A DNA stretch of 62,666 nt, counting the filler, from Sphacelaria rigidula (lineage: Eukaryota): assembly GCA_964200075.2 (NCBI GenBank). It is 9 parts of 9 records of this genome, joined end to end, with 100 filler letters (N's around TTAATTAATTAA, not from the genome) between each part and the next. Parts side by side here need not be neighbours in the genome. Positions count along the whole stretch, not along the records: positions 6,975 to 13,848 come from CAXNAA020017635.1; positions 13,949 to 20,822 come from CAXNAA020017636.1; positions 20,923 to 27,796 come from CAXNAA020017637.1; positions 27,897 to 34,770 come from CAXNAA020017638.1; 5 more parts are not named here. One strand, given 5' to 3'. Of this stretch, positions 6,757-32,681 are shown piece after piece. Position 1 is the stretch's first letter, and every line of letters starts with the position of its first letter. The notes under the pieces are model-generated. The model saw only the letters and a list, made by a program, of their open reading frames with translations. It searched no databases and had not been told where the DNA came from. The position numbers were made by a program, and so were the translations under genes.

Positions 6757-6874
6757 CTGTTTATTGCATTTTGAGGCACACGTTTGTTTATTCACCGACG
6801 AGACAGGGGTACATCAGGATTGGAAATGACGAACCCCAACCCCCTACGAACCCTCTTTTTGGACCCGATTTTTC

Positions 6875-6974: not shown

Positions 6975-7149
6975 GGGGGACAAGCCAGTGGGGTTTCGCC
7001 CACCCCAACCAAAAAAAAGGGGCACCCCCCCCCCCCCCCCCCCCCCCGGGGCCACAGACGGCGAAACAGGACAGGGATAAGAGAAAGATGTGTAAAAGGT
7101 TTTTGTGAAGGGTATGGAAACAGTGCAATGAGCACTGAAATGTTGGGAG

Positions 7150-9363: not shown

Positions 9364-9738
9364 GTGTGTTGTGCTGTCACCCCATCTTTTCTGGACGCCA
9401 CCGGTCTACACCTTTCGGTTCATATGGATGCATCAGCCAGCCGGGGTCACAAAGGAGAAAGCTCAACGCGGGAGTTTTTTTTTGTTGTTGTAATTCTGTC
9501 AGTACTCCACCGTCGTTGTGCCGCGCTTGCCTTTCGTTCTATCGCGAGAGGAGTTCAATGAACCCTTTCCCTCTCGTCGACCGTAAAGTCGAATTTTGTG
9601 TACCCACCACATTGCCGCTCTCCCCTGTTGGGCATGATGTGAGAAAAAACCCAGGTCGTGTGACTTCCACGTAGGTTCGAACCCACGACCCAACCGTCGA
9701 AAGCTTTCGAGGTTACCCACTAAGCCACAGGGAAAACC
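9364..9738 (-). mobile_element. tRNA-derived SINE family 1
   Basis: Minus strand begins with A-box-like (TGGCTTAGTGG) and B-box-like (GGTTCGAACC) motifs; body and CA-rich tail shared with 29424-29765, 47453-47622, 55246-55392 and 55793-56152. Confidence 0.8.

Positions 9739-10510: not shown

Positions 10511-10569
<59 letters not shown>
10511..10569. repeat. (GAT)n microsatellite preceded by a GTT/GTC-rich tract
   Basis: Direct reading; explains the poly-D/M/S ORFs in the track. Confidence 0.95.
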
Positions 10570-11084
10570 TTATTGTTCTGTTCACATAAAAACGGTCTAC
10601 GACATCTGCGCAGTACCTTTCAACTTCCGTACTGGGCATCTGGTGCGGACGCCTTTCCTTTTTTTTTTTATTGTGCCTGACTACACCCTGACTGGCTTTG
10701 TACCCGCTCAGAGTTTAGTGCTTGCATCTAAGGCCGCAGTGTTTTACTTATTCGCCGCTTCTTGCACATTTCTTCGCGTCGTGGGGACATTTTCAGCACC
10801 ATCGCGGTCCGGACGAAGGTCGAGCGTAGATTTGCTGGCAGGAAATGCTGCGGCAGCTACGGCGGAGGTTACATCTGTGTCAGGCCCCGCGCGAAGGTTT
10901 TCTGCCTCTCAGGTAAACCTGCTAAGTAAACGTTGAAGGAGCGCCTGGGATATTGATTCGCCTTTGGCGCCTTGTCTTCATGTGAGCAAACAACGAACAG
11001 CGCGTGAAGAAAAAACAAACCGCTGGTGAAAAGTCTCCCCTATCTCTCAGTTGCAAAGGTTTCAAGTTGTCTGTGCGGCTTACG

Positions 11085-11376
11085 CATTGGTCGTAAAAAT
11101 GGTCGTCTTACTTGGCTCAAGATTGAAAACCGATATCAGGATCTTTGAAGGGGCTGACGGTCCGAAGTACGCCTAGCTTGCTCAGAACGTGCTTTTGTCC
11201 CAATCGGCACCGCAGTCAAGTCTACCAGCAGCGCACACTTTACCTTGGGCAGCCCTGGCATCCCCTTAGCCCGAGAGTTCTCGTATGGCTCGGGTCGGCG
11301 TTAGGGTTAGGGTTGGCGTTGGCTCGAATCGTAAATTTCCGAGAACGCTTTTTGTCAACCATTTTTACGACCAATG
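11085..11376. mobile_element. Telomere-motif cassette element, copy A (19-bp IR CATTGGTCGTAAAAATGGT)
   Basis: Perfect 19-bp inverted repeats; core homologous to 27296-27624 and 30219-30524, ending ggtcggcgttagggttagggttggcgtt. Confidence 0.8.
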
Positions 11377-11904
11377 TATATGCACGACTCCACGTTGCCA
11401 AGGTTTGGAACAGCCATTGCCTTCCCCCGTTCTACGTTGAGGTGTACCGTCGGCATTGAGTATCTTTTATTGAGACTTCTAGAGAAGCTAAGCACTTTTG
11501 ATCATATATTTTCTTCGCCCCCCTCACGCCCCCCCCCGCACCCCATACCTCTCTAGGGCTCAGGAGGGTGTACCCTGGCCGAATGGAGTCGGACCCTCGA
11601 GGACATGGGGCTGTTCCGAAGACGCGAGGTCCCTCTACCGAGCGCTGTCGAGGTATAGACGTGCATTTCATGTTTCCGCACAGCGATTGGTCACCCTGTT
11701 GAGGCGCTACACAAGTTGACTAACGAGTCATGCTGCGGTAGGGGTTGCGTATTTGGGCCCAGATCTTTCTCATCCAGGGGCTCCTACCCGATAATATGGG
11801 TCAGAAAATTCCCGTTTTTAAAACTTATCGGGATATCCCGAGCTCCCTAGCACAATGGAATGCTAATCGTGTCGTGCTCCCACATGCGACTATGGTGCCT
11901 TGAT

Positions 11905-12199
11905 ATGGAGAATCTGGGATACGATTGAGAGTGAGAAGCTGTCGATTAATACACGAAATGGTGTCAGTTCCGAAATGTCCCTCCGGGCCTCATAGGCGAC
12001 CCGATACACTTTCTATGGTAGCTTGCCACTGAAGCCTTTGATATCCCTGAGTACGATATCGACGTGTAGCTGTAAGCACACGGCAGTGTTGCAGGCAAAG
12101 AGAAGCACACACGAAATGAAAAACTTGGTCAAGTTATTAGAGTAAATGATAAAACTCATTCTCAATCACCGCGGGACTCTCATTCTCACGAAAATATTG
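11905..12199. mobile_element. MITE family with CAATATTTTCGTGAGA-type TIR (partial copy)
   Basis: Reverse-complement homology to 59200-59505; a further fragment at ~41602-41744. Confidence 0.7.
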
Positions 12200-12979
12200 C
12201 TATATTTTACGGGCCGTTTTCGAAATGAGATGAAGGGTTCCTAACGATTCAAACCTCAGAAAGTATTTGTACCCCTCTAGCGTTGCGCCACTGTAACGCA
12301 GAGTTCGGGGTGTGACCCACTCCACGTCCCTCTCTGAACCCAACGGGCCTATTGGCGAGGCTACACGGTCGTGGGTTGGATTGACGGAGCCGAACAAGGA
12401 ATCGGTTAGAGACTTGGGCACAGCAAGGGTACATCGTACCGGTTTATAGCATTATATGTATAGTAAACCGTTGTTGGATGTTCTTTCCATGGGTGTCGTG
12501 TGCAGGATAGCGCACTTCCCGCAACCCAAGCGTGCTTCGAATATTTTACGAAGACGGCTGTAAATAGTTATTAGGTGTATCGGCGATCGTGCTCCAAATA
12601 CCGCACGCACCTCCTTCGATCATGCCTCTCTCAGTTCCTACCCGTACCCTCCTTTTATCATTTGGCCACATGCAGTGTCGGCCAGCTGAGTAGAGGTCCT
12701 AGCTCTGTTGTGATTTTATCTGCACATCATTGTCACGTTGTGACCTCGTCGCCGCACCTTCGGTGTTGCCTTGTTGATCAGCACGTCAAGTCTTTCCGTT
12801 TTGTGTATCTTGAGTACCGTCTATCTAATGACTGACGACCACGGCTGGATACCTCGGTGACCATATAGTGTGTGCGACAATCAAACCAATAATGGAACCG
12901 GTCCGTTAATCTCCCAGCATATGTTTCAGCGCCATCTGAGTGTTTCTTTTTTTTTCTAATTATTTGTCGCACTTTCAAC

Positions 12980-13272
12980 CCCTCTCCTTCCTCGGAACGA
13001 CTCGGAACGAGTCCGTGGTCTCAGAGGATCAACCCATCTCTCCCCGTTACACGCCTTGCATTTTTGTCTCTCGCACATCGGGTCAGCACTCCCGCGCCGC
13101 GTCAACTCACGTCAAACAAACGCAGTCAACCACTTTGTTTACTCACACGTTCTCACCCGCTTTCCACGGTGGAAATCAGATACTACGAAAGAAATAACCC
13201 AACGCATCGGGAATCGAACCCTCGTTATCTCCACCCTAATGGCGACAGTCGGACCATTACACCACCGGGGCG
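12980..13272 (-). mobile_element. tRNA-derived SINE family 2
   Basis: Minus strand has A box TGGTGTAATGG and B box GGTTCGATTCC; full-length homology to 26311-26592 (+). Confidence 0.8.
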
Positions 13273-14247
13273 CTCCGGCGACTGCAGCGCACAAATATAC
13301 AATTTACGATGGCAGGGTTTTACTCGTCCCCGCCCTCCCTGCACTCACTTTCTCGTCCTGGATAATCGCATATTCCGCGCGGTGTTCACTGCAGAAGACC
13401 CCGTCGGCAAGCGCACAGTCGGAGGCAGAGCGAATCTGCAGGCAGCTCGCGGATCTGGGCCTTCTCATACCCGTACGTGAGTGCTGAATTTTCTCGACAG
13501 AGAGACTTAGTATCTCGAGATGTCGTCGATGCACGCCTTCAGAAGTCGGCCCCGCAGCAGTTTGGTCTACTTCCCCCCCCCTCCCCCCTGGTGTTTCATG
13601 TACTCCTTCCGTCGAGTTTCCTTGAGCGACGAGTGATTCCGCTCATGTACTAGGTCCTGGGGAAGGTCTAGCTTGTGACCGCGGCTAGCTGCATAGCGGG
13701 CCACATGGCGTGCGATAGTCAATCAAACAATTCAATCGAAAGGTAGGCAACCCATACCCGAAATTCCGTCCACCCTGGAGTGATGCTACGGTAGGGGTAC
13801 AGAAATAATTTCTGAGATTAGAATTGTTAGGAGCCCCTTATCTCATCCNNNNNNNNNNNNNNNNNNNNNNNNNNNNNNNNNNNNNNNNNNNNTTAATTAA
13901 TTAANNNNNNNNNNNNNNNNNNNNNNNNNNNNNNNNNNNNNNNNNNNNGAAAATAAAGCAACTCATTGTAGGCTGCCGTCCAAATGCAAGATAAACAGTA
14001 GGCTTCGGGCCGAACAATCTTAGGGTTAGTACTCGAACATTGTGTGGAATACAGGAGCTGGGCCAGCCTACTATCGGTTCTGTATGCTGCAGGCCCGTTC
14101 TAAACTCAAATTTGATGGTTGAAATTTTAATTTCAGTACGGGAAATCGCTAGGGCATGATTAAACGAATTGAGATGAACATATAGTTTTTTTCATGAGAA
14201 AAGGCCAACAATCAAGATCCAGGTTTCAGTCAAATGTCCGTAACTCA

Positions 14248-14590
14248 TAATTTTTCGTCCCAAATGATATATTTTTATCATGCACTATTAGAGGTATCTC
14301 AAACTCGGCTTCCGGTATCCTGGTTTGTTTTGTTTTATTTTTTCAAGTGAAACTGATCATAACTTTTCGTCCCAAATGATGTATTTTTTCATGCACTATT
14401 AGAGGTATCTCAAACTCGGCCCCCGGTATCCTGGTTTGTTTTGTTCTATTTTTTTCAAGTGAAAGTGATGCCGATTCATCAGATGATGAGACCCTTTGAC
14501 CGCCAGGTCAGGTCCTCTTATGGATCGTACACAACTCAGAGCCAGCGAATGTACCAGGATACCGGGAGCCGAGTTTGAGAAACCTCTATT
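14248..14590. repeat. ~115-bp tandem duplication plus an inverted partial copy
   Basis: ttttcgtcccaaatgat...tagaggtatctcaaactcggc..ccggtatcctggt twice; inverted accaggataccgggagccgagtttgagaaacctcta at ~14553-14588. Confidence 0.75.
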
Positions 14591-15189
14591 GAGAGCGATT
14601 TCTCACATCAAATTTGAGAGTCCAACTCTCAAAAGTGAGGTGAAAACAGGCGATTCAGTGGGTTTAGTATGAAATCGTATGTGCGCCATATCTCGCGGTA
14701 GATAGCGAATGGCGTGAAGGTGAGGAAATCGATCGCTTTTCCGTGCTCCGTGTCATCCTCTGTTGTCCATATTGTTCGGGGTTTCATATAGAGTTTAGTA
14801 TGGACCCCATCTCCGTACGATGTAGGAATTGCTCGACACGGCGCGTAATCAACGAGAAACGTTTCGCTCAGATTTTTGAGCAGATGTGCATCTCTCTCCT
14901 GAATATACGATTGATACGTTATGTGGATCACGATCCCATTCGTCTGTGCCGCTGAAATATGGCTGTGAGAGCTTGAATCCGTCCTACACTGGCCCAGCTT
15001 GCACACCCCTCAGAAAACAAAGAGACGAATTATATAAGGTAACACGCCAAAGAGTGTCTCTCCGAAGGAAAGCCGAAAAATAACCGCACGAAAAAGCAGA
15101 GTCAACCCGAAGAATGCTACGAAAATAAATGCAACGTATGCATGCAAGAACAGGTTTTCCTCCATCAATCAAGGGTATCCCGCCACTCT

Positions 15190-15460
15190 TGACACTTTCT
15201 AAGATAGCCCCCCCCCCAAGACAAAACCCCCAAAACCAGACAAGAATTGTCACGAAGAAAATGGTCATACAGCGCCTGCTGTTTGGTTTCAGGGTGCATG
15301 ACGCGCCTAAAATGGGCGACATTGGCGAAAACGAACCCAAGCGTGGGGATTCCCAGCTTCTCGTTGTGCTCGGCTTTCTTCATGTCCATTCACCCGTAGA
15401 TTTTGCCTCCCAAAACCAGCCACTTTCTTTTGGGGGGGGGGGGGGGGGGGGGGCTATGGT
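15190..15460. mobile_element. MITE with TGACA(T/C)TTTCTA.GATAG.CCCC TIR, uninterrupted copy
   Basis: Reverse-complement homology to 59630-59819 joined to 61558-61628; carries a single TACAGCGC (15268-15275), the empty site of the hAT insertion. Confidence 0.75.
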
Positions 15461-16699
15461 TAAATTTTTTTTTTGTTCCCCTCTGCCCCCCCAACAAAAA
15501 AAAAAAGAAAAAAACCAAAGATCTTGATGAGCTGGGTTTACACATACGATCCAACGAACAAAATGCTCTGACATTGACCCATCGTATGTTGATTATCGCA
15601 CATGAACCGACCCGACATTAGTCCAGGCGTTGTCGCAAGACAGACGCGCTCAACGGCAATACACGGAAACATTCGCGAAAGGAAACTCGAAAATGAAAGA
15701 TGTGGAGAAGGAGAGACGAACAGAGTTGAGTGAGCACAAAAACGAGGAAATATAGGAAGACAAATGAAAAGAGAGGACAAAAGGGAAGATAGAAGAGAAG
15801 GAGAAAAAAAGCCGGGTCGAAATCTAGTGCTGGCCCCGGTAAAGAAATTCGGCATGCCCTTGCTGGACGGTTTCGGGTATGGAGACCGTATGTAGAGAAA
15901 AAAAAACAGAGAAGAAAGAAGGAGGCGAAGAGAAGGGAAGGGACGGGAAGGAAAGGGGAGAGGAGGAAAGGAAGAAAGAGGAGGAACACAGAAGCGGAGC
16001 AGAATATGAGCGGGAAACATCGCTCGGAAACATCGATAAAGTTGCACGCTTCGGACGAATCATCGCCGGTTCGAATAACCAAACCCGCGATTTGTCAGGC
16101 CTGATTTCTCAACAAAGAGGGAAAAGTTTACCGTTGGTGAGCAAAGTCTCCACGCAATGTTTGCGCCATTCCACGTGCCTGGGCTACGCGTATCTGGGCA
16201 GAAAACAAAGCCTGAGGATTCATTCGTACGGTACGACTAAATCGCATCAAAACCTAGTAATTTCCAGACGAATCATAAATTCGTCCGACCCTTGTGAAGT
16301 TGCAACCCAAGGAAACAAGTCAGCCCCCGGCAGAACAAGGTAGGTGTGTCAGTTTCCGTGCTAATCCTGTCCCCTCTTCATCCCTGGTTAGGGGGAAAGT
16401 AAGCCATTCTCGCGACTACAGTGATCTTCGATTATTCGTAGGCTATTGCTACTGTTGTTGTGCCAGCCATGTTGATCATGTTACAGTCCATAGCAGGTTT
16501 TTAGTTATGTTGGGGACAGTCTTACCTTACCTGTTTTCATGGGGGAAAGTGCTGGAAGTTCGTTAGTAATGCGACTTCACCGGCAAGCGATAGCGCGTAT
16601 GAGCTAATGAACCGCACGGTCGAGAGTATCATATTGACATATTTGCAATTCGAAAGGGAACAGTCGGTATCGAGTCCCACTATGAGACATTTCAAGCCT

Positions 16700-16700
<1 letters not shown>

Positions 16701-16749
<49 letters not shown>
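16701..16749. repeat. (CAG)n microsatellite
   Basis: Direct reading. Confidence 0.95.
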
Positions 16750-16753
<4 letters not shown>

Positions 16754-17972
16754 CTTCACAGCCGTCAACTTTAAACGTCCGCATCCCGCGAATGTCGACG
16801 AATCGAGAAAGACTGAGTGAGGAACTAGAAATGGTGCGTCTTGCCTCGATCTTTGCAACGGCGTTGATGCTCAGTGTCGAGTCCGAAAATTCGATTCAAT
16901 GCAGAATTGCAAACGGAGCAACTCGCGTTTTGGGAGTTCTGCTTTCGATTCACTCTCCACGACCGCAGCGCGCATTCGTGTAACACAAGACATGTAGACA
17001 AGACATGCATCGGAAAATCGCAGCCATTCCGTTTCCAACCATTTAAGCGATATGATCAAGACCATCTTCACAATTTGCCTGAAAACGGATCATGGACATG
17101 TTTGACAAGCTGCGCAATGACGAAGAAGAAGCTTGTGGAGGAGATCAATCGCAGGTAGCACCACCCTACAATCGAGTGACTCGCCTGCCGAGCACCACTA
17201 GCGAGCACTTGTAGTGTGGATCTTTCTCCCTCAGGTACTTGTGCATGGTGTATCTGCCGACAATGAGAGGGAGAGGAAGAGGGACGGAAAAGAGAGAAGA
17301 AGACGAGAAGGAATCAACGTGGGAATACCGGTAATTTAGTCTTACACTGGCCATTCTCGGCGTAAGGGAGAAATCTTGAACCAATCCCTCAAGTCTCACT
17401 ATGTTAACGAGAGCGGCCTGCACGCGGGATACGAATGCGACAGTTTGATGTACACTGCGGCACCGTGGAGCTCATGCAGAGAGCACGTGGTTGTCTGATG
17501 TGTTTCGATCCACTCGCGGAAGTAGGAACCTGTTTTCTTGAAAGCTGCTGGCAGTGGCAGGAACCCCATGTTGTCAGCCTTTTGATTGTAGATTGATTGA
17601 TTGTCGATTGATTGATTGTCGCACTTTAACTGACCCCCCAGGAGTCCAGCCGTGGGTTTGTGAACTGGGATTTCGATCGCGGCTCGAGGTGAACCCAGTG
17701 CACTCACACATTGATCACCCTCTTGATTTTTCGGGGCGTTGCCATCGGGAGGTACTTGAAGAGATCTGACAATTCGGTGCGCTCAGGCAGGCTTGCGTTG
17801 AACTCGATCCGCTCTGTGACACTCCAACTTCTCCGTCGGGCGTGCACGTCTGCTTCATGTGTTGTTGAAAAACATCGACACGCAGGAACAATTTATTGTG
17901 ACAAAGCAGGGTGTAGTATTGATGATCATTCCATGCTTGCGGTGTGCACATGCACTGTGGTAAACGTCGAAA

Positions 17973-18089
17973 AACCTCACCGATCAATTCGCGATGTACA
18001 AATGTACCATGGTAAGCGTAGCAAACCTCACCGATCAATTCGCGTTGTACGAATGTGCCATGGTAAAAGTGGCAAATCTCACCGACCAA
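17973..18089. repeat. 51-bp tandem repeat (2.3 units), in frame in minus-strand ORF 17715-18251
   Basis: aacctcaccgatcaattcgcg... repeated; encodes GE(I/V)CxxYHGTFVxRELI units. Confidence 0.8.
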
Positions 18090-18789
18090 CAGATGCTTCT
18101 CCTGGAGTATGGGTTCGTGAGCGCTCCTCCACTTGCGCTGCAGTGCTCTGTTGATCCCGTCACAGATGAAATCAACGTTTGCCGCCGAGGCTCCTGATAG
18201 TACTGCTGTATTTGGCTCTTCAATGAAGGATTTCCTACGCTTGCCTGACACACCGGTGTACGATAGAATAACCCGTTCGGTTGCTCACACTTTCATGTCT
18301 TTACTCACGGCCCCAAGTAAGCACCCACACATACAACGGTAGTTGTTGGGCTTCGCGCGCCGGATACCAGGAAGTAGTGGAAAACCGTGTTCACTGAAAC
18401 GGCAAGCCAATGATGCATTGCAAGCCGAGGCACGCGTTCCGCAAGGCTGATGGAGAGACTAACGTGCGTGGTGGAGAGGCGATGATGCTTTTGTCTATGG
18501 TACCCATGGACGCTCATTCTGATAACGGTGACAGCTGATTGGCGTCTGCGTAGAACTTGCCCGTGTGTGAAATATTCACACAGCCGTCGTATATACAGGA
18601 TGGCCGGGCGTCGATTGTTAACCTGTCGAATTCCTCGGGCACCAGTGGTGGTATCCGGCTACATGGCCCCTTGGCCAATCGTGATCGCGCAAATCAAGGT
18701 CGCCGTTTGCGTCATTGCATTTGGAAGAGGGTTGGAGCCTCTGCCCGAGACTGCCCCTCGCCGACTTACGTTTCTGTAGGATTGCTCAC

Positions 18790-18928
18790 CTTCAGCAAAG
18801 CCTTTGGTGTCGGTGCTGTTGTCACTCAGCATTTTTCTGCCTTCTTTGTGCACATTTTGCAGCATCCCCGCAAATTCTCCATTCTTCTTCTCAAGCTTTT
18901 CAGCGCAGTCTTCAATATACTCCAGCAC
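18790..18928 (-). pseudogene. Probable downstream exon of the KAP NTPase pseudogene
   Basis: ttCAG acceptor, G|GTGAGC donor, protein-like VLEYIEDCAEKLEKKNGEFAGMLQNVHKEG; same strand and scaffold as the KAP exon. No motif of its own. Confidence 0.35.
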
Positions 18929-19829
18929 CTGAACCCCCGCAACGATTGTCAAGCACGACATTAGTGCAGATCGAGGGCGGCGACCGGGGAGGGGGGGCGG
19001 CAGTGGTTCGTACTTTCTTCGTTTTCGTTGGAAGAGAATGCCGATCGAACGGCCACCCCGGCGCCTCAGTTAGCATCCGCTCTTGTTGATTCATTGATTG
19101 GTTGACTTCTTGTCGTATAATTGCTGATCCCGGAGAAACCCAGCCGTGGTAACAAGGCAGGCGGTCTCAGGGTTATGGACTAAATACTCCCTGGGAGCAG
19201 CTGGAAAAAGCAGAAGACAGCGAGAAACAGTACTGTCAGAGTAAAAATGTAGAAATGAGATCCAAACTAAACAAAACAAATGGAGGAAAGTAGGATAATC
19301 GCAAAAACGAGACGGCAACAGAGCGACAAACTTACTGCCCCAACCCGCCCGAAAAGCACTTAAAACTTGAACTTGCAACGGTCCTTTCCTGGCGTCGGAC
19401 ATGGTAGCTCCATGCCTCACACGCCTCAACGGACCCTTGAGATTACGAAACACAGTAATGAAACTATCCTGAGAATTCTTGGAGTTGGAACTAGATTGAA
19501 AAATGAGGAACTTGAGCTGCTTACATCAGGCAGTTTGTCGCTTGCGAGCTGATGCGGACGTTGGTTTTTCGCGACCGTCGCCATCTCAACATCTGCCCCA
19601 CGAAGCACATGGCAGAAGAGTCGGACAATGAGTATACATAACGATCAGGGCACAGCATTCACAGCTCCACTTTTACCTTTTGCGCGGTGCGAAACATTAG
19701 TTACATTGGACATACTGAGAAGCAGCGAACACAACACGCGAGTAGAGTATCAACTTCTTGGCTTTCTTGAAGCTCCGAGTCCAAGAGAATCTGCAGCACG
19801 CAAACACACTAACGAGGAGTGGTGATTAC

Positions 19830-20054
19830 CTGGGTGGTATTCTACACTGGGGATTGAATATCATATTTTTCACACTCGCCCCGGAGAACACACAATATAC
19901 CTACGAACGCTTGAAGCCGCGGAAGGGTGTTTCGAAACGTGTTGTCATCGCCTGTAAGTAACCCGTCCACCAAACGCTGTCGGCGCAGCCCGCTTGCGGC
20001 CGGTACGCTGAACGGTATGTGGATGATCTTGTCGAGGTATTCTCTTCCCGTCAC
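19830..20054 (-). pseudogene. KAP-family P-loop NTPase exon with an in-frame stop
   Basis: VTGREYLDKIIHIPFSVP matches the KAP GxxYLxKI(I/V)xxPFxLP motif; aatAG acceptor and CAG|GTAATC donor; TAG at 19842-19844. Walker A/B exons not found on this scaffold. Confidence 0.7.
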
Positions 20055-21245
20055 CTATTGGTACCGTCCATTGGGGGGAAAGTGAGGCCACGTGGGCAGA
20101 AACGATTGTTGGGACCCAGTGCCCCGGTGAATCCAATGACTCGGTGAAGCGACACTCCTCTTCCGTTTTTCTCTCAAATAAAGTCGAACAGTTCTCGCGG
20201 AATGACGGTGCAGGCTGACAGTTCACGAATGGACAGACAAAAACAACTACCTGAGGTCGCTAATAATCAGAATGCATATTCTTTTAATGTTCCCCATTTT
20301 TGAGTGCATCGACGATGCGGAAAGTCTCCCTTGTGGAATGTTGATGTCGGCTTTTCGAATGTATCCGATGCAGTGCGGCAACAGCCGAGGTTGTTTCTAG
20401 GCATTTCAGCTGCCAAAAAGTCACGTAAATTGCGGGTGTTTCATATACTTGCTGGTGCGTCACATTCAGCAACATCTTCTCGATTTTAGTAAAGTTTTTT
20501 TTTTTGTCGGAACGGGAGGTTTCCGTGATTTACACCAAGCCGAATCGTCCGAAACGCTGCCACCTCCCCTGAAAGCCCGTGATCTGACGGGAACTTCGGC
20601 GCAATCAGATTTGCAATCGGTCACGCTCTTGAAAAACGGACGAAAACGTGCAAAACATTTATTTTCTTTCTTGAACCAAGGGGCAACTAAAAAAGAAATT
20701 CGTGACACGTAGGCCCCAATCGAAAATTCGAGTTTTCGAGAGGGGGGGGGGGGGGCCCCAAGCCGGGTGCTCCCTTTTTTTTTGCCGGGGGCGTGGCGGG
20801 AGGGGACTGCGGCGTTAAGTAGNNNNNNNNNNNNNNNNNNNNNNNNNNNNNNNNNNNNNNNNNNNNTTAATTAATTAANNNNNNNNNNNNNNNNNNNNNN
20901 NNNNNNNNNNNNNNNNNNNNNNTCGTCACGAGTCGACTCATCATACTAAAATCAAGTAATTTTCAGACGAATCATTATTTGTCCGACCCTTGATACATTG
21001 CACCCTACTCGGCGCTCCATCTCTCGCGTATTCCTCTCCTCCCGCCGCTGCCGCATACACTTTTGTTGTCTTCTCTGTTTTACCCGGTGTCCTGAAACTC
21101 AATAAAAAAACTGGCCAATGGCCGTCACCAACATCGGATCACACCCACCGAATACCTTAAATCGGTCGACATCAACATCAAAGCGTCCACGCGGTGTTCG
21201 AGAAAATGGCGACGCTGCAATCTTGCTGTCGCGTGGCCGGAATAG

Positions 21246-21757
21246 GTCTTCCATTGGCACAAGTACTAGCCGGCACGGGTCTTCAGCCGACGAGAAGTCC
21301 CCCGATCATCGGCGGGAAGCAGCCGCCTACTCTTACCAATGACCAAGGCAGAGGTGGTGCTTTCAGTCAAGCCGGAAATTTGAGTGCCAATAGCGGCACT
21401 GGAAACACTCCTGGCGGTGGGGTTGGTAATGTTGGTGGTGTTGACCGTCCAAAACCGCGTCGATCAGATGGAGGACCTGAGGGGATGCCGACGAGGGTCC
21501 AAAACCGATCTGCGAACCGGTCCCCTGGTTCCGCACCGGGAGAAGCACCGCTAAGTGGTGGAGGAGCGGTGCAAGAGGGTGACGTGTCGTTGCGAAATGT
21601 GATAGTCGAAGAGCTCTGGAAAGTCGCCGTGGTGTGCCTTTGCGCGTTTTTCTTTGCCGTGGTGCTTCAGTTCTTCCGTGGTGACAATCCCTTGGGCTTG
21701 GCTGTAGAACGGGGTGATGGGGGCACTGACGAATTCGCGGGTGGTGATGAGTTTTAA
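21246..21757 (+). CDS. Terminal exon of a single-pass membrane protein (Gly/Pro-rich region, C-terminal TM helix, ends ...GGDEF)
   Basis: Open for ~170 codons after a candidate aatAG acceptor; hydrophobic LWKVAVVCLCAFFFAVVLQFF; acidic tail then TAA. Confidence 0.55.
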
Positions 21758-22159
21758 GAATGTTTGTCGATGAATCACTGGTGTTGATATTTTTGTTGCG
21801 ACAGTCCACTGAATCCATATTTCTCCGGACACGCGGAATTTTTTAGGCGTGAACGTTTGGCGTTCGAATAGCACCTTTCACCTTTCGTACTGATCTTTTC
21901 CCACTCAGGTTTGACTCATTGTCCAGTACAACAGCGGCAAGGCCTTCGATACTGCTGCGTCACAACTCGAAATCATTCAAAGTGTCCCCGAGTATTAATT
22001 AAAAACGCTGCTCGTGCTGCTCAACTGAAAGCACTAATTTGTACTACTGACTGTCCTCTTTTTATACCTCTCTCCGCAATCACGACTTTGACCGCTGATG
22101 TCCGCTAGAAATTGCACGGGGTCACGTAAACTGTTATAGTGCGACTCACAGCCGCCACG

Positions 22160-22369
22160 CGCCGGTGATCCAATATTTATCTTGTACCTTACACCACCTG
22201 GCAGAAAACGCGAGTTCGATTCCCGGTATACGCTTGATTTTTTTTTCCTGAAAAATGTATCTGCGCCCTTCCTGTGTGACCTACAACAGCAGTAGGCTGA
22301 TGCCCCCACATACCGAAAGGTGTAAACCGGCGTCCAGATAGATGGGATGACAACACGACAAACCAACAC
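22160..22369 (+). mobile_element. SINE with a different tRNA-like head but the family-1 3' tail
   Basis: B box gagttcgattccc at ~22212; tail taccgaaaggtgtaaaccggcgtccagatagatgggatgacaacac matches the family-1 tail. Confidence 0.6.
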
Positions 22370-22919
22370 GAATTAAGCCGATGTAAGTATATGGCTGTGA
22401 ACTGCAGAGACCAACCTACTGATGCACGCCTTACCGCTAAAAAACAAAAACGAGAAACACCAACGATCGAACTAGATTCTGTAAAAGAAAACTCTCTGTC
22501 GCAATTTGAACTCGTGACCTTCCGTCCCTATGAAGGTGGAATGCCCTGCCCAATTTGAGGAGTTTTAAACCTAAATTTTACGAGAACCTTTCACGAGCCA
22601 GTATTGTCGGGAACAGATTCCAATCCATCACGGAAGCTAACAGAGTCTCCCGATCTGAGCAGAATGGTGATGAACCAAAAGTCAGCGTCTCTAATCTGGG
22701 GGTGGATGCGAGAGTCTCCCGATCTGAGCAGAAGAAGGGTGATGGACCAAAAGTCAGCGTCTAGACATTCGGATAATAATTGCTCTGGTTTCCTCAGAGC
22801 TAGACGAAAAACATTGCCCATCGGACTGGGGTTCGAAAAATCAATCCGCCGGAGAAAATCGGATCAAGACGGGCTGAAATCGTCACACTTGTAGAAATAC
22901 GGACTGGTTGCCGTACAAG

Positions 22920-23328
22920 GCGGTCCTATTATTGTTGTATATTTGGATTCCAAACCACCTACAGTACAGCGCTGGACGCCAAGCACGCGGAGTAGCGCTT
23001 CTTGGACCCTGATGTCGAGTACTTTGTGTTTTTGGACAAGCATTTCGAGCCCTCTTCGCACGCAGTTATTTCACGTATGTATCCCATGAGCTGTCCGACG
23101 TGTGGAAAATTATCATACTGAGCCAGGATCGAGCTATAAATTGTTGATATCTCTGCTCTCCGCTCCGAGATCTTGGCTAGTGATAATGTGGGGGAGCCTG
23201 TAGTATGGCTGTAAACATCTTCGCTCAATAATGGCTCAGGAGCCGAAAATACCAGCGTACACACAAGAAGCTCGTGTGTGACAGTCCCGCCATGATCGCA
23301 TCAGGCATGATCTACAATAATGGGACCG
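22920..23328. mobile_element. MITE-like element with ~15-bp TIRs (GCGGTCCYATTATTGT)
   Basis: gcggtcctattattgt pairs with acaataatgggaccgc; lies between two copies of the foldback family. Confidence 0.55.
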
Positions 23329-23346
23329 CGCCCCTTATGAGCTTAA

Positions 23347-23804
23347 ACCCACTTTTATGGCAACGAATCCCGATTTTTACAAATAGGAGAATTTCAGCCC
23401 GTCTACAGGCGATTTTCTCCCGGGAATGATTTTTCGCACCCCAGTCCGTTGGGCAATGTTTTTCGGCTAGCTGTGAGCAAACCAGATCAATTCTCCAACT
23501 TTCTGGGCGTTGACTTTCGATACATCACCGTTCTGCTGAAATCGGGAAACTCCCGCATCTCCCCCGCATCTCCCCCGATTTGAAAAAAAATCGGGGGAGA
23601 TGCGGGAGTTTTTTTAGAAATGTGATAAACCAAAAGTCAACGTCCATAGAATCGGAGAAATGATCTGGTTTGCTCACAGCTAGCCGAAAAACATTGTCCA
23701 ACGGACTGGGGTCCGAAAAATCAATCCAGGGGAGAAAATCGCCTGTAGATGAGCTGAAATCCTGATATTTGTAAAAATCGGGACTCGTTGCCATAAAAGT
23801 GGGT
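23347..23804. mobile_element. Foldback MITE with ~185-bp arms; related half copy at ~22620-22915
   Basis: acccacttttatggcaacga... pairs with ...tcgttgccataaaagtgggt; flanks TTAA and CTAA. Confidence 0.85.
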
Positions 23805-26310
23805 CTAATCCGCTCACCTCAGGACCCAAACCTGAAATTTCAATATTACGGGTACGTTTCATCGTTCGTTCGATCACGGCGCTACATTTTGATTTGTACG
23901 ATGTGTTCTCGTCTTTTTCAACCAACGGAGACAGATTTCCCAATGTAAACGGAAATGTACATGCACATGAATGAGAGCTGACGATACAGTAGCAGCCGCA
24001 CGAAATGAGTGCTGTCGTTGCGGTAACGGACACGACATACACGAAGGAGGAGCACTGCCCTCCACAAACGAGTAGCGGATTAATCCGCAGCTATTCGGTA
24101 ATTTATGGCAGCAAGCAGCCAACCGGCCGATCCGATCTGGTCCTGCAGGTGGCAAGGAAGATCCATAATCCACGGCGTCATGGATCATGCATGTGTCATG
24201 TGTCATGTGTCATGTCCCTATATTCCGCCGCATTTTTGTTTCGCTGGGCGCTTTGCCAAGCCCCTTCAAAAATGCCGTTCACACAAACGCATCACCCGTG
24301 ACAGGGGAGGCACGTTGCTTACAACTATCCCACGCGCGTACGTAAACTGCACACCAGCAACGCTCTACTGCACTTCGCACAGGCATTCTGCGTCCCCCTC
24401 TCTCTGCAGTCGAAGTTATAGCCATTGGACGTGTGAGTGGAGACGTGATGGCTACTGATAACCCACCACCCAGGTACGAACACACGGTATTTTGTACTGT
24501 ACTGTTCTCCTGGAGAAAGGCAACTACTACAGCAGAGTATAGCACCGGTGGTTGTGCATGTACAGAAGTGAGTGTACAGTGTACAGGCAGTACAGTAAGA
24601 TTTTGTACTGCACTGTACTGGAGCCGACCGTTGACGATTTTGCTGGTATGAGAGTTTGGAGTTTGGATGGACTGCCGTCATAATCATGTAGCGAGTGCAG
24701 TACCCGGCGAACAGCTGCGTGTGGGCGTTGTGCGCAGCAAGCAGAGTATGTTCCCAATCCACCTGTGCATGCACAGAACAGGCGAGAGCGGGTCATCAAG
24801 AGCCAAGCTCCAAAGTGTCAATCAGGATTAAAATTAAAGCGCCAAAATCCTGAATCCTCCTGCTGCAGACTGACGGTGATGTATACCCAACGCACTTGAT
24901 CCTGAACTATACTGTTGTACGCTCGCTGTCTGTCCTGCTCACACTAGTTGAGACAGCACACCCGGCGGAATAGAGATCGCTGCACTCATCATACATCGAC
25001 ACTGCGACGACTCTTGACTACGGCGCACTGCTTTCGACTTTTGTGTGCCAAAACAGGAAATTTTGTGAAGGGCAGATCTCGAAAGTCTTGACAGTATTGC
25101 GGACGTTTGGCAAATCCGATGATTCCAGCTGGCGGGCGTGCGCAACAGCGGTCGTGAACGTGAGTTTCAGCTGCTCCGATCTTGGCCGCACGCTACATTT
25201 CTCATGGATATATTGTATTACTGCAGTTGATGTGATGTTACACATCCGGGTAGTTTGGTGTTCATCGCTTATGTGTACAGTACATGTCTAGTGTTGTACA
25301 ACAGTTCAGTCCCGTATTTGTATGGTGAGAGGTGAACCAGGATGTATAGTATACGTGCACGAGTACACACGACAGTATTTATTATGTGTATTGTTGTTGT
25401 GCCGCATTATCGTACTCCTGTAATGTACGCATACAGCATACTGGAGTAGTACAAGTACAGTTTTAAAGTGCAGGCATTCGAAAGAGGGGGCATGTGGATC
25501 TATTCAACGACGTGAAGGTACAAATAGGTATGGACCCCACTGCTTTCTATAGTACAATGAACGTGCATGGTGTTAGTATTCATGTGAGTGATCTCAAACG
25601 GCTCCTGAAATTTACGTTTTGCCACTTTTTTTTCACCCACTGAAATGTATATCCCACACCGTTGTGGCATTGCACAAGGGAGCACATCGCTGCCAGGCAA
25701 GTCGTGAGCAGTCGTGTTACTCACGTTGATCACTTACTTATTCGACATTTTGCTATCTGTACGTACGAATGTTCAATGTCCAATGTTTGCGTAGATATCA
25801 CTCCTACGAGTGCAGCGCCGGGTTGCTTGCCGCGCATTACCGTTTATCTGCGGTACGGTAGTCCTTCCTACTTCAACGAAGAATAAATGAAACCTGCACC
25901 CAGTATAATTCGGTCACCATCTAAAATTAAAGCTATAATAGTGGCAGGTGTCCAACCTAATTTTCCAGCGAACTTTTACGTGCCTGTTTTTCGGTCATAT
26001 CCTGTGTGCAATGTGCACATTCTCCTACTGGTGAGGGATTCAAGGCACAACATGGTATGTGACGTCAGAAGAACCCATAGCAAACGTTGAGCAGGAACGG
26101 GAAACCGGTGGGGCGATACTGTTCATTTCCCGGAGTCTAGAACAGACGGTTGCGGAAACTCGATTTACCACTGCGCTTGTAATTAACTGGTGTACGGGCG
26201 CACTGAACTTACACGTGGACGATGATGTGATGGATTATTTATTGATCGTGGCGTGATACCCCACTGGTGTCGCCGTAGTAGTCTATTTTGGTGTACAAAA
26301 CTGTAACTGC

Positions 26311-26592
26311 CGCGGGCTGGTGGTGTAATGGTCTGGCTGTCGCCATTATAGGGTGGAGAGAACGAGTGTTCGACTCCCGATGCTTTGGGTTCTTCTTCGT
26401 CATGTCTGATTTCCACCGTGGTGAGCGTGAGAACCTGGGTAAGCAAAGTCGTCAACTGAGTTTGTTTGATATTAGTTGACGCGGTTCGGGAGTGCCGTCC
26501 CGATCCGCGAGACCAAAATGCGAGGCGTATACGAGGGGAGAGGAGGGATGATCCCTTGAGAGCACAGACTAGTCGCGAGGAAGGGGAGGGGC
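26311..26592 (+). mobile_element. tRNA-derived SINE family 2
   Basis: tggtgtaatgg ... gtgttcgactccc; homologous to 12980-13272; purine-rich 3' end gtcgcgaggaaggggagggg. Confidence 0.8.
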
Positions 26593-27295
26593 TCAAAGTG
26601 CGACAAAAGCAAACAAGCGCTCGGGCCGCTTCTGAGCTAGTGTTCGTGTGTCGTTAACCTTGCGTATATTTATCTTGTAACCACGGCTGGATCTGTCGAG
26701 TATCAGTTAATGGGCGACAGCAAATCAATCTATAGTTGATCACGTATGGATGTGAGAAATGAAGCACCTGAAGTTTGAGGGATTGTTTTACACACTGTTT
26801 TTTAACTGGATTTTTTTTAAACCGCTTGATATATTGTGAGCTTCAAGTTTTGCACACCAGCTGGCAGGCGTGAATTTTCCGAGGCGGGGTTGGACGTGGT
26901 TGGGCAACTGGTTTGCAGATTTCATGCAATGGTGAAGAAGCCAGGATAGCACATGTATCGTGTCGCGCAAAGGGACGATGGCACAGCCTCCAGGCACAGC
27001 ATCGCGGGGACAGGAGACAGCGCTGAAGTCATCGGCAATTCTTCGCCGAAACGACCGACACTATCGTTCTCCGATTATTCCTCGCCATCGATGCCTTTCA
27101 CTTGAAACAACCGTGCAGAAGAAGCAATCTTACGCCTCGCGGATCAAATGTTCGCCTTTACACTACCCGTAAAAGACAACACGAGAGCTGGCGCTGCTTC
27201 CTCCCGTGGAGAGATTCGCGAAGCCATACTTGAAACCTCTTTCCGACGCGTGCTTCGAGAAGGGCAGCACGAAAATATGCTCAATATACACGGAA

Positions 27296-27624
27296 GACCT
27301 AAAGAAATGTTCGTACATAATGGTTGGTTCTCGATTTTACTTTATTTCAGCCTGAAGTAAGTTCTGAGAAAATTCATGTTTTGGGGGCAGGTCAGGTGAG
27401 CAGTAGATCCAGTTCGTCCAGAACGTGTTTGCGTCCATAATCGGCGCCTGGGCGTCGATTTGAGCTCTGCCAACGCACACTTTGCCTGGGGAACACCTTG
27501 CACCTCCCTTGCCCGTAGGTTCTCCTACGCCTTGGGTCGGGGTCGGGGTTAGGGTTAGGGTTAGCGTTAGGATTGACGGCACCTCTATAGTACCAACCAT
27601 TGTGGACGAACATTTCTTTTGGTC
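27296..27624. mobile_element. Telomere-motif cassette element, copy B (~33-bp IR)
   Basis: gacctaaagaaatgttcgtacataatggttggt pairs with accaaccattgtggacgaacatttcttttggtc; core ends ggggtcggggttagggttagggttagcgttagg. Confidence 0.82.
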
Positions 27625-27896
27625 CCTTTAATATACAACCGTGAAACAAGTTGTGGCGCCGCTTCCTCATTGTGGCCCGGTGCGGATTGTCACTAACTAA
27701 ATGTTGGGTTCCGCACTCCTCACCGGGTAAGGGTTAAGCACGAGACTAGTGAAACGAAGCAGGGGTCAAATAAAATTCTGTCGTGTGTGTGTGTCGNNNN
27801 NNNNNNNNNNNNNNNNNNNNNNNNNNNNNNNNNNNNNNNNTTAATTAATTAANNNNNNNNNNNNNNNNNNNNNNNNNNNNNNNNNNNNNNNNNNNN

Positions 27897-28150
27897 TCCA
27901 GAGACAGCAACGGCTTATACACTGCCTCATGGGTGTCTCACTATTTAAACACTACGTAGTACGATCATCACCCCTGTGCGGAGTTGAGGTTCTCCCACGT
28001 CGCACAACATGATCTAGCTCGACCACCATCATGGCTACCGCAAAAAAAACGCAAGTGCGCAAAAAAACGGTAACCTGTTTGCCTCGCTCACGCAGTGAGT
28101 GGCGTGTTTTGTAGCGCCATCGCCAACCGACGCCAACCCCATCGGGGGTC
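27897..28150. mobile_element. Internal fragment of the direct-repeat-bounded ~500-bp element
   Basis: Homologous to ~34390-34612 and, reversed, to ~54735-54986. Confidence 0.75.
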
Positions 28151-29423
28151 AATACACTTTTTTGTCTGTTGAAGTGTTTGCCGTATTATAATTGAAAGGT
28201 TTCGCTTGCTAGCGGAGGTTTGTGAGGTGACGACACTTTTTTTTTTTTCGTAAATTACGTGACACACCGGACTCTGAACCCAGTATCTTTCCAGTCACTT
28301 TTAAAGGCACAGCGAAGGAAGTAATGAGTCCTCCACACGGTAGCGTGCTTGTGATCTCCCTTCACCAACCTTCAACCGAAATCCCGTGGAGGGATGTACA
28401 TGTTGTTCCGTTGGGTACAGACTCAACAGCAAGCTAGGTGTGTATGGCACGATCTTTTTCTCCCCCTCGCTGCTGGTGTCGTATCAGCACAGCTACCGGC
28501 TCTGCACAAGAAAAAAAGGGTAGCAACGTGTTGGAGTAAATCAATATGCACCGTATGTCCAACCTGAGGTTTCGTAACTCCCTGACTCAGGTTTGAGCCG
28601 ACCCTGACTGCACCAGGAGTACTGAAGCCTGAGCTCCTCTTCCGCCAAAGCAGTCGATACCTGTGTGCCTTATGGAGGCTGCATACGTCGGCAGGGCGGT
28701 GAAATTGCGTCGAAATTTCGCTTTCAGCCTCCCTCTCTTTTTTTTTGCTCACTGAGGCATCGGGCTTATGTATTTGCTAGAGGTTGGAAATGGTTTGTCT
28801 AACCATTAACCAGTTGAAGGGTTACGCGTAGCGCACTCATTAATGAGTTAAATTTTACGTGATGATTTGGTTATCGAGCGGCGCAGCCGCGAGCCAAAAA
28901 GCCCCCCGTCGGAGGTGCACCCGTAGGATCCGTTGGACGCGCCGTGCCGGAGGCATATTTTTACGCGATTCGGCTTCGCTGAAGCCAAAAAAATGTCTTG
29001 AATTTGGGCCAATTTTTCTAGGGCTGCATATAGCATACATAGCCGGTAACGGTAAATAATGGTTTGAAACCGTTGTCCGAATTTTTCATATAACCATTAC
29101 TATTATCACCATGATAATGATACCGGTCACTTATAATCGGTATCATTTCCGAGCTCTAGTTAATTGATTTGATTGATTGTCGCACTTTAACTGACCCCCC
29201 GGGGGTCCAGCCGCAACTGCTTTTTTTTCATTCTGTCTTCGTTCTTATACTCGAGAGTCGTTAAGGGTCGAGTTTCACCGATTGTTCCTCTTTGGATACA
29301 TGGATCTTCCAGCAAACACAGCTGACTTCGTGCTAGATCCATGAACGTGAGGAAGTCAAAGAATATATAGATCAATCAATCAATCAATCAATCAATCGAT
29401 CGATCGATGGCGAAAATAGTGCA

Positions 29424-29765
29424 TGTGTGTGTGCTGTCATCCCATCTATTCTAAACGTCAATCTACACCTTTTCGGTATATCTGGGCGCATCAGCCGGGA
29501 TCACACAGGAAGAAGGTCAACACAGGAGCTTTTTCTTTTTTCTTTTTCATTGTAGTATTCCACCTTTTTATCGCAAGAAGGTTTCAGCGGCCCCTTTCCC
29601 TCGTCGACCATCAAGCCGAATTTTGTGTACCCAGGACATTCAAGCTCTCCACTGTTGGGCATGGTGTGAGAAAAAAACCCAGATCGTGTGACTGCACCCA
29701 GATTCAAACCCACGACCCAACCATCAGAAGGTTTCGTGGTTACCAACTGAGCCACCGGGGCGACC
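29424..29765 (-). mobile_element. tRNA-derived SINE family 1 (full length)
   Basis: Minus strand ggtcgccccggTGGCTCAGTTGG...gtGGGTTTGAATC; no paired acceptor stem; (CA)n tail. Confidence 0.85.
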
Positions 29766-30218
29766 TGTGTGTATGTGTGTGTGTTTTTTTGTCTCCCCTC
29801 GGCTTCCATAGCAGCATCCAGCGTTGCTGAGCGACCGAGCACAGCAAGAGCAAGCTCTCGATGGGTGATGGTATCGCGATCTCCTGTCTCCATGTCCGAC
29901 GACGGGCTACAATTTGAGAGAAGGTCGGGAACGGGAGTGCAGACAATCGTCAAAGACAGGGTCGAGGAAGTCACCGTGGTGAGTTTGTCGGGGGGGAATA
30001 TCTTTCGATACACCAGGATCCTTTCATACGGTACGGAGTACTCTCCCCATGAAATAGCACGCCCCTTGAAAACGCCCCCGGGGCGCAAAGGATTTCCATT
30101 TTTGCACTTATGTGTTGTAGACAAGAAAAGACAGACGTGTCGGAGAGAAGTGTATCGATGACATGTTGACACTATCACACGTTTTGGTCGTCACTTTTTT
30201 TTTTTCCATGTTCTCAAT

Positions 30219-30524
30219 GGTGTTTACCCCTTGACCGGTCAGAACTTTCCCGGATTTTTATTATTTGAATATGAGTGTAAACACCGATATTCGGATCTTT
30301 CGTGTGGTTGACAGCCCCGAGGGCTCGTAGCGTGTGCAAAACGCATTTTCGTTCAAATCGACGGCGCCGGTTCGAGCTCTGCCAACGCCACCCTTCGCCT
30401 AGGGAACGCCTTGCACACAAACACACACCCCTCGCCCGAGGGTTCTCGCTATGCCTTCGGTTGGGGTTAGTGTTTGCGTTAGCTCGAAATATTATACTTC
30501 CAAAAAAAATCAAGGGGTACATCG
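30219..30524. mobile_element. Telomere-motif cassette element, copy C (short IR TACCCCTTGA/TCAAGGGGTA)
   Basis: Core ccgatattcggatcttt...gagctctgccaacgc...gcctagggaacgccttgca...gcccgagggttctcg...ggggttagtgtttgcgttagctcgaa aligns with copies A and B; IR unrelated to theirs. Confidence 0.7.
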
Positions 30525-32491: not shown

Positions 32492-32681
32492 GGGCGTGTT
32501 CTATGACATGAGTTTTCGATCGAAAATGTGCGGTGGAAGACAAAGGTTCCGATCTGTTGGGTTGTAATTTCAACCATCCTCGAAAAGCTTGAAGATGGTT
32601 GAAATCACGGCCTATCAGATCAGGATTTTTTGTTTTCCACGGCACTTTTTCGATCGAAAACTCATGTGCTAAGACACGGCC
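32492..32681. mobile_element. 190-bp hairpin MITE, possibly PIF/Harbinger (Tourist-like)
   Basis: Near-continuous stem with a ~15-nt loop; termini GG(G/C)CGTGT; flanks TGA and TAA. Confidence 0.75.

Follow-up and report, generated by a model that had tools for sequence, protein, structure and literature searches.

A probable miniature inverted-repeat transposable element family with an internal telomere-like array in Sphacelaria rigidula

A 62,666-nucleotide stretch of Sphacelaria rigidula DNA (assembly GCA_964200075.2; hereafter the window) contains three related elements, designated A, B and C, that are bounded by inverted repeats (IRs) and carry an internal array of TTAGGG-like hexamers. 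Taken with the mechanism proposed below, the evidence makes it probable that they represent an old, still recently active family of non-autonomous class II elements of about 330 bp, i.e., MITEs (miniature transposable elements with inverted repeats). The copies are dispersed, homologous over their whole length and embedded in unrelated flanks; they possess IRs (weak in C) and flanking duplications, and they have no coding capacity. Duplications, IRs, small size and lack of coding capacity together point to a non-autonomous cut-and-paste element.

The window is composed of nine pieces of 6874 bp, joined by spacers of the form N44-TTAATTAATTAA-N44 at positions 6875-6974 and every 6974 bases thereafter. 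Since these are nine separate pieces and no single locus, distances across pieces are meaningless. A, B and C lie one on each of three of the nine pieces. Coordinates of all features are given in Table 1.

Results

BLASTN comparison of the copies was significant for all three pairs (B-C, 71% over 155 nt, E 5e-15; A-B, 75% over 95 nt, E 7e-13; A-C, 78% over 67 nt, E 2e-7). Three elements of about 300 bp with a shared core, as described in an earlier note on this DNA, are thus indeed present on three pieces, although the consensus letters quoted there for the core are essentially those of copy B. Homology is not confined to this core, as had been supposed: local alignments run along the whole element, with A-B spanning 11079-11384 and 27299-27637, A-C spanning 11060-11345 and 30204-30506, and B-C beginning at the inner edge of the left arm of B. 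A nucleotide profile built from A, B and C using nhmmer matched only these three in the window, plus three further matches at E 2 to 5.2, none of them a convincing copy. Pattern scans of a collection of bacterial and archaeal genomes for further family copies gave 0 matches, as expected for a eukaryotic repeat. Beyond the direct repeats described below, no homology was found between the flanks of the copies (E 0.2 or more). A larger repeat unit enclosing the elements was rejected because the flanks are unrelated and small flank matches are at chance level. Each element is single, and only the hexamer arrays are tandem.

When the 40-nt flanks were screened for the best direct repeat, each of the three copies was found to have a significant one (Fisher-combined p = 3e-6), contrary to the previous view that there is no consistent target-site duplication. 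The same test applied to 11 other IR pairs of the window yielded p < 0.05 for one of them. The flanking repeats of A, B and C look like target-site duplications. They sit 5-27 nt outside the IRs used by the earlier note, which places the true ends further out, at about 11063-11397 for A and at the positions listed in Table 1 for B and C. The lengths between the direct repeats are nearly equal (A, 335 or 331 bp; B, 339 bp; C, 330 bp) and, once these bounds are set, a weaker IR continues to the very ends; in A, both ends then start with CAA and the IR extends over ~42 nt with gaps. A 9-bp duplication fits all copies (A 8/9, B 8/9, C 9/9), and so does one of 8 bp (A 7/8, B 8/8, C 8/8). Nearly intact duplications suggest that insertion took place long after the copies had diverged from one another. 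The differences would therefore lie between source lineages, each of which was still active.

The IRs that bracket all three copies are real (A 19/19, B 36 nt at 89%, C 10/10). Their strength in A, B and a fourth element, D (see below), was reached by 0 of 500 shuffles, and that of the extended IR of C by 10 of 500; within 37-nt end windows, the IR of C has p = 0.001. A weaker second IR of C, ~45 nt long and in a different register, reaches the element ends. The arms of A and B had been called only distantly alike, which understates their relation: four arm pairs are homologous at p = 0.001 to 0.017 in shuffle tests, as exemplified by TGGTCGTA-AAAATGGTTG versus TGTTCGTACATAATGGTTG (p = 0.001-0.003). 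No relation of the arms of C or D to those of A and B was detectable (p 0.14 or more), in line with the proposal that the IR of C is of another type. Accordingly, two IR types (A/B and C) do occur with one core, but the IRs are not fully interchangeable, since those of A and B are homologous. Within the window, the IR sequences of A, B and C are matched only in these three elements. The arms of each copy are complementary to each other, yet unlike the arms of the other copies; by our own count from the arm alignment, about four paired positions differ between A and B on both arms.

These results bear on a mechanism favored previously, in which a hairpin or rolling-circle (HUH) enzyme, or a recombinase, needs only the core plus any hairpin and leaves no target duplication. 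Such an enzyme would be compatible with a shared core accompanied by IRs of the A/B or C type, and with the terminal stem that dominates whole-element folding (z -2.1 to -5.6). It is nevertheless very unlikely in view of the direct repeats of 8-13 nt that flank all three copies, 8-9 bp fitting each of them, and of the homology between the IRs of A and B, which are therefore not arbitrary. Moreover, the ends are not of the form 5'-TC...CTRR-3', a short GC-rich hairpin is lacking by the 3' end, and no HUH or tyrosine-recombinase domain was found in 329 scanned stop-free frames of about 790 (at least 50 aa) in the window. Helitrons have no target duplication, insert between fixed nucleotides and carry TC...CTRR ends with a short 3' hairpin. 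The family resembles Helitrons and Helentrons in its hairpin-forming sequence, its short non-autonomous form and the weak constraint on part of its ends, and differs from Helitrons in its duplications and in its ends.

Telomere-like 18-mers (three units, at most 3 mismatches) match the window 11 times in 4 loci, against 0.06 matches expected. All four loci lie inside IR-bracketed elements, namely A, B, C and D, consistent with the claim that the family scatters telomere-like sites. The description of the core as ending in TTAGGG repeats holds in that the arrays are far above chance; it does not extend to C, which has no perfect TTAGGG dimer and only GGGGTTAGTGTTTGCGTTAG. In the alignment, the arrays of all three copies coincide in position, 60-75 nt from the right end, so that the array was inherited rather than inserted three times. 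It is best read as an inherited internal microsatellite of about 5 to 8 units that is now slipping or decaying. Candidates for its ancestral source are telomerase action at a break and slippage. Telomeric repeats inserted at breaks, some with flanks derived from telomerase RNA, have been described in vertebrates (PMC8537989, PMC2246262).

Element D is foldback-like, its arms making up most of the element (2 x 57 of 198 nt), which is not the case for A, B and C (10-42 of ~330 nt). The loop holds a telomere-like array (6114-6143) together with the TCTC-TATGG lead-in and the AGCG ending of the family. No significant direct repeat flanks D (p = 0.79).

One could suppose, in view of these arrays, a telomerase-related origin, in which either telomerase appended the array where an ancestral IR element had broken, or the minus strand represents a mobilized gene resembling telomerase RNA. 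Along the minus strand, the latter version would comprise, in this order, a TATA-like, AT-rich box (right border, A and B), a leader, template repeats of the CTAACCCTAAC type, the conserved 180 nt and a T-run (A and B). TTAGGG is indeed the telomere repeat of Ectocarpus (PMC11541908), the break-inserted repeats of vertebrates offer a precedent, the array of D lies in a foldback loop, and the minus-strand motifs can be seen by eye. These motifs are, however, not conserved in C, the 'template' comprises at least three repeats and is decaying, and no match to an Rfam telomerase RNA was obtained at E up to 10. The single aligned position of the array argues for inheritance, and three diverged copies with duplications argue for insertions rather than for a telomerase RNA gene. 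We therefore consider this origin extremely unlikely. In the text of PMC8287931, a telomerase RNA candidate is given for a single named genus of stramenopiles, Blastocystis, and the words 'brown alga', 'Ectocarpus' and 'diatom' do not appear.

A mini element located 0.4 kb downstream of copy A contains ~38 nt homologous to the left subterminal region of C (p = 0.002). By our own reading, its arms, TACCCGATAA and TTATCGGGaTA, stand in place of TACCCCTTGA and TCAAGGGGTA of C and differ from these in a complementary manner. The mini element looks like an internally deleted C-type element. If it is a C-type derivative, the C-type IR would be a second real IR type and no chance match.

Mean pairwise identity in 30-column windows amounts to 0.55-0.74 for the bulk of the core and array, where a single window falls to 0.48; at the ends it is mostly 0.30-0.48, rising to 0.54 immediately to the left of the core. 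The middle is thus better kept than the termini, as had been noticed before. Over gap-free columns, core identity is 83% for B-C and 64% for both A-B and A-C, while left-arm identity is 65% for A-B and 38% for B-C. The left part and the core are unlike in their site patterns (heterogeneity p = 7e-6); with three sequences, this indicates no more than a change in relative divergence from one part of the element to another. B is apparently a mosaic of an A-type IR and a C-type core. Segment exchange between lineages is the simplest cause of this signal, and poor alignment of the ends contributes to it.

In A, B and C together (1000 bp), nine occurrences of the hexamer SAGAAC were counted where 1.24 would be expected, two of the sites being homologous positions; as the motif was picked after looking, it is a post-hoc lead. 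It is a candidate subterminal transposase-binding site. Transposases of such elements read subterminal sequence as well as the terminal repeat, as is established for Ac/Ds. In an element of 330 bp of the hAT or Mutator kind, subterminal transposase-binding regions would take up nearly the entire length, and this may account for some of the conservation of the middle.

The conserved core does not appear to encode a protein. Stop-free frames crossing the elements are long (110-122 aa), but none of the six frames stays open in all three copies; the A and C frames align at 32% identity, and the core shows no period-3 substitution pattern. A search for protein relatives gave 13 candidates for the A frame, none significant, and 0 for the C frame among 1.84 billion representatives. 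With frames broken, no period-3 pattern and no protein relatives, a coding exon or captured gene fragment was rejected. Likewise, an RNA gene or ribozyme was rejected for want of an Rfam or tRNA match and because most copies fold like shuffles. In the whole window, there were 0 Rfam matches at the gathering threshold and 0 tRNAs according to ARAGORN; with E up to 10, Rfam gave four weak matches in 27200-30600, none inside B or C, and 0 in 11000-11900. Outside the terminal IR, folding is no better than that of dinucleotide shuffles, at odds with a structured core: z ranges from -1.1 to +2.2 for the core as DNA and, as RNA, from -0.1 to +0.8 in A and B, only C reaching -1.6 to -2.5. The covariation term of RNAalifold is only -0.88 kcal/mol, three sequences giving no usable covariation. 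A short interspersed nuclear element (SINE) or other retroposon was also rejected, on the grounds that there are no tRNAs, no Rfam match in the elements, an array well inside the right end and no A-rich 3' ends.

A different view of the conserved middle is that 130-180 bp of core, together with the array, form a selected or cis-acting part that is passed between IR backbones by recombination or template switching. This part may bind a host, transposase-derived or telomere-repeat-binding protein, or act as a regulatory module, and the termini would need only complementarity. In line with such a modular core are the identity profile along the element, the mosaic structure of B and the covarying arms within each copy, as well as the occurrence of family pieces in other IR contexts in D and the mini element. 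Furthermore, the insertions look young (duplications 12/13, 8/8 and 9/9), yet the copies are 17-36% different in the core, so that the differences would be those between active lineages. We nonetheless regard it as rather unlikely. Only three sequences are available, their site patterns measure branch lengths and not topology, and their ends align poorly; the core holds no structural or coding signal that points to a selected feature. The array decays, C keeping a single GGGTTAG, which argues against conserved binding of a telomere protein, and the content of G-runs varies between copies by eye. Still less probable, in our estimation, is the more specific version in which freely drifting termini need merely remain complementary and the kept and swapped internal part could dock a transposase-derived or telomere-repeat-binding protein. 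If this were true, the middle would be what acts in cis in a cut-and-paste element, and the element would be a vehicle that spreads docking sites through a brown-alga genome.

Finally, A, B and C could be non-mobile, being either what is left of old segmental duplications or a non-coding element conserved in the vicinity of genes. A ClpS-like exon lies at a distance of 1.6 kb from C and a JmjC exon at 0.3 kb from D, and the core is conserved; however, homology stops at the IRs, the flanks are unrelated, each copy has its own flanking direct repeat and the three copies lie on three different pieces. There is thus hardly any likelihood left for this explanation.

Discussion

Under the MITE interpretation, a transposase supplied in trans would make a staggered cut and insert each copy, leaving a target-site duplication of about 8-9 bp. 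This length fits hAT or Mutator-like enzymes and does not settle the superfamily. The hexamer array would descend from the family ancestor as an internal microsatellite that decays or slips. The copies would derive from long-diverged source lineages, in which arms drift yet stay complementary within a copy, and exchange of segments between these lineages would have produced B, with its A-type IR and C-type core. The dispersed homology over whole elements, the IRs, the flanking direct repeats, the lack of a coding or RNA-structure signal and the mosaicism are all shown by the data; in this scheme we infer the enzyme class, the mobilization in trans, the origin of the array and the reason for the conservation of the core.

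Several observations weigh against this interpretation. The evidence comes from three full copies only, and the IR of C is weak, being either 10 nt perfect or, in the other register, ~65% over roughly 23 nt by our own count. Three copies do not fix the length of the duplication, the matches being 8, 9-12 and 9-13 nt, and the terminal bases beside the duplications are not conserved between copies (A CAAGT/CAACG, B CGGAA/AAAGG, C ATGGT/CGAGG). A second, 15-nt direct repeat around B (27189-27203, TGGCGCTGCTTCCTC; 27654-27668, TGGCGCCGCTTCCTC; 14/15) is asymmetric, lying 93 nt and 30 nt outside the IR. If a transposase recognizes terminal repeats, one would expect the ends to be better conserved than the middle, the opposite of what is seen, and family fragments within unrelated IRs, as in D and the mini element, are not predicted by a simple MITE model. 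The window contains no autonomous copy with the same ends; a long copy encoding an enzyme, proposed earlier as something to look for, was not found there with these termini. The link to hAT elements consists of a sub-threshold Pfam match (see below) that shares no termini with the family.

Mutator-like elements and their MITEs have duplications of 9-11 bp. IRs vary between Mutator-like families, which include chimeric, fragment-carrying elements. Read as 9 bp, which fits all copies, the duplication would be in line with this group, while the short arms (10-42 nt) and the absence of a Mutator-type transposase signal from the 329 scanned frames are not. The end motif of hAT elements is 5'-YARNG, which is present in only one of the six ends of the family (the 3' end of A, CAACG). 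hAT-type MITEs are short non-autonomous hAT derivatives, such as the Mar family of Drosophila (PMC3517528) and the BniHAT families of Brassica (PMC7385995). Like these, the elements described here measure a few hundred bp, are non-coding and dispersed, end in IRs and have a duplication that can be read as 8 bp, and a hAT-related peptide is encoded in the same window. Unlike them, they have ends that are less conserved than the middle and, in A and C, matches exceeding 8 nt, and no autonomous partner is seen in the window.

Telomere repeats in mobile or repeated DNA have also been met with in other settings. Tel-1 of Tetrahymena is a telomere-bearing ciliate transposon. So is TBE of Oxytricha (10.1101/2025.03.17.643836). 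The family shares with these a DNA transposon organization with IR ends and a host telomere repeat; the ciliate repeats, however, are at the extreme termini, whereas the array of the family is internal and degenerate. Short interstitial telomeric sequences inserted at double-strand breaks (PMC8537989, PMC2246262, PMC7215372) are likewise short imperfect TTAGGG runs at internal chromosomal sites. By analogy, break insertion may explain how the ancestor or element D gained its array. In contrast to such sequences, the family array is inherited within a repeated mobile unit, with no independent insertion at each site. A subtelomeric 98-bp satellite of Ectocarpus, with three TTAGGG motifs per monomer, has been proposed to provide seeds for telomere healing (PMC11541908). 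It too is a brown-alga repeat with embedded telomere motifs. As described in that source, it is tandem and only subtelomeric, unlike the single, dispersed and IR-bounded elements of the family. Searches of open-access full text turned up no account of a MITE carrying telomeric repeats internally in stramenopiles or brown algae.

The family looks like an ordinary kind of MITE whose middle is unusually well kept, and not like a novel type of system. It accounts for interstitial telomere-like sites, given that all such loci in 62 kb fall within IR-bracketed elements. This is of use in the repeat annotation of brown-alga-like genomes and to those who take TTAGGG runs inside chromosomes as signs of chromosome fusion. 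Only the mosaic copies and the inverted profile of conservation are, modestly put, able to lead further. Should both persist across hundreds of copies, they would be informative on the portion of a small DNA transposon that is read by the transposase and on the way in which recombination gives rise to new MITE lineages.

Other Features of the Window

Table 1. Positions of the elements, their parts and neighboring features in the window.
Feature	Position	Strand	Description
Copy A, whole element	11063-11397	+	335 bp with a 9-bp duplication; alternatively 11063-11393 (331 bp) if all 13 nt of the repeat were duplicated
A left flanking direct repeat	11050-11062		GTTGCAAAGGTTT; agrees with 11394-11406 at 12/13 positions; p = 0.0005 for flanks of 40 nt
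A right flanking direct repeat	11394-11406		GTTGCCAAGGTTT
A left IR arm	11078-11103	+	26 nt, 88%; inner 19 nt (11085-11103) perfect
A right IR arm	11358-11383	-	Partner of A left arm
A conserved core	11183-11292	+	From CAGAACGTG up to the start of the hexamer array
A degenerate hexamer array	11293-11322	+	GGTCGG CGTTAG GGTTAG GGTTGG CGTTGG
Copy B, whole element	27291-27629	+	339 bp between 8-bp direct repeats
B left flanking direct repeat	27283-27290		AATATACA; 8/8; separated from both IR arms by 5 nt; p = 0.0165
B right flanking direct repeat	27630-27637		AATATACA
B left IR arm	27296-27331	+	36 nt, 89%; homologous to A arms
B right IR arm	27589-27624	-	Partner of B left arm
B conserved core	27419-27533	+	From alignment and BLASTN
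B hexamer array	27534-27574	+	GGGTCG x2, GGGTTA x3, then variants; only perfect GGTTAGGGTTAGGGTTAG of the window
Copy C, whole element	30217-30546	+	330 bp between 9-bp direct repeats
C left flanking direct repeat	30208-30216		ATGTTCTCA; 9/9; p = 0.002; 11/12 as TCCATGTTCTCA from 30205
C right flanking direct repeat	30547-30555		ATGTTCTCA; extends to TCGATGTTCTCA from 30544
C left IR	30225-30234	+	TACCCCTTGA; 10/10
C right IR	30510-30519	-	TCAAGGGGTA
C conserved core	30337-30458	+	Holds a 10-nt CA-rich insertion
C decayed array	30459-30482	+	GGTTGGGGTTAGTGTTTGCGTTAG
Element D, foldback-like	6005-6202	-	198 bp; 57-nt arms, 84% (48/57), unrelated to A, B and C arms; 85-nt loop
Mini element	11777-11850	+	74 bp; short IR around ~38 nt homologous to C left subterminal region
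JmjC exon-like fragment	6516-6791	-	Pfam E 9e-5, just under cut-off; JMJD6-like relatives in brown algae and Tribonema
ClpS exon-like fragment	32121-32381	+	Pfam E 3.6e-7
hAT-related peptide	60276-60488	-	71 aa, stop-free; sole Pfam match Dimer_Tnp_hAT, E = 0.055, under curated cut-off

The Pfam scan covered 329 distinct stop-free frames, the ~460 others being shorter frames of 50-73 aa. Exon-like matches in the scanned frames were limited to JmjC and ClpS. Among the 150 longest stop-free frames, no credible Pfam domain was found, two weak matches (E 0.0065 and 0.0099) being far under the cut-offs; the JmjC and ClpS fragments both came from the following 150. The best named relatives of the JmjC fragment are from Ectocarpus, Pylaiella, Scytosiphon and Tribonema, with 53-58% identity over most of the query. 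The hAT-related peptide resembles the C-terminal dimerization region of hAT proteins; it is 70% identical to a Sphacelaria protein that itself matches Dimer_Tnp_hAT at E = 0.0028, and 55% identical to an 800-aa Ectocarpus protein without a Pfam domain; it could be part of a diverged or domesticated hAT-related gene. Judged by the relatives of the JmjC fragment and of this peptide, the host genome is that of a brown-alga-like stramenopile, with short exons and plenty of non-coding DNA. The window has a G+C content of 47-51%, with CpG undepleted (observed/expected 0.99) and a low TpA (0.72). One piece contains an internal gap of 10 N (40113-40122).

Small IR elements and palindromes are abundant across the window. 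Large near-perfect palindromes occur at 61032-61495, 23343-23808, 39262-39681 and 32491-32682, one example having 223-nt arms at 90% identity around an 18-nt spacer, and indicate a genome rich in foldback elements. The IR elements at 32878-32999, 33279-33403 and 39262-39681 share a common end, AACAG(T), and may constitute a separate MITE family; the last of these has ACTA at both flanks. The IR pair at 56009-56241 (25 nt, 76%) is flanked by an 11-nt direct repeat (ACCGCAGAAGG / ACCGCGGAAGG, p = 0.0115) and may be another transposon insertion; it is the one pair among the 11 controls above that had p < 0.05. A tandem array at 34980-38090 has a unit of ~0.7 kb, its copies being 90-94% identical and each holding palindromes of ~440 bp.

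Two further dispersed repeats were observed. A family of ~370 bp with 73-87% identity is found on five pieces (9364-9732, 29415-29760, 55793-56158, 47450-47620 and 22295-22363), one copy stopping 0.45 kb upstream of element C. A repeat of ~300 bp (79% identity; 12963-13266 and 26319-26607) occurs on the pieces of A and B and adjoins neither element. Microsatellites and homopolymers include perfect (TGA)x20 and (GCA)x17 as well as C or G runs of 22-27 nt (10511-10569, 16700-16749, 7025-7047, 15432-15453 and 48860-48886).

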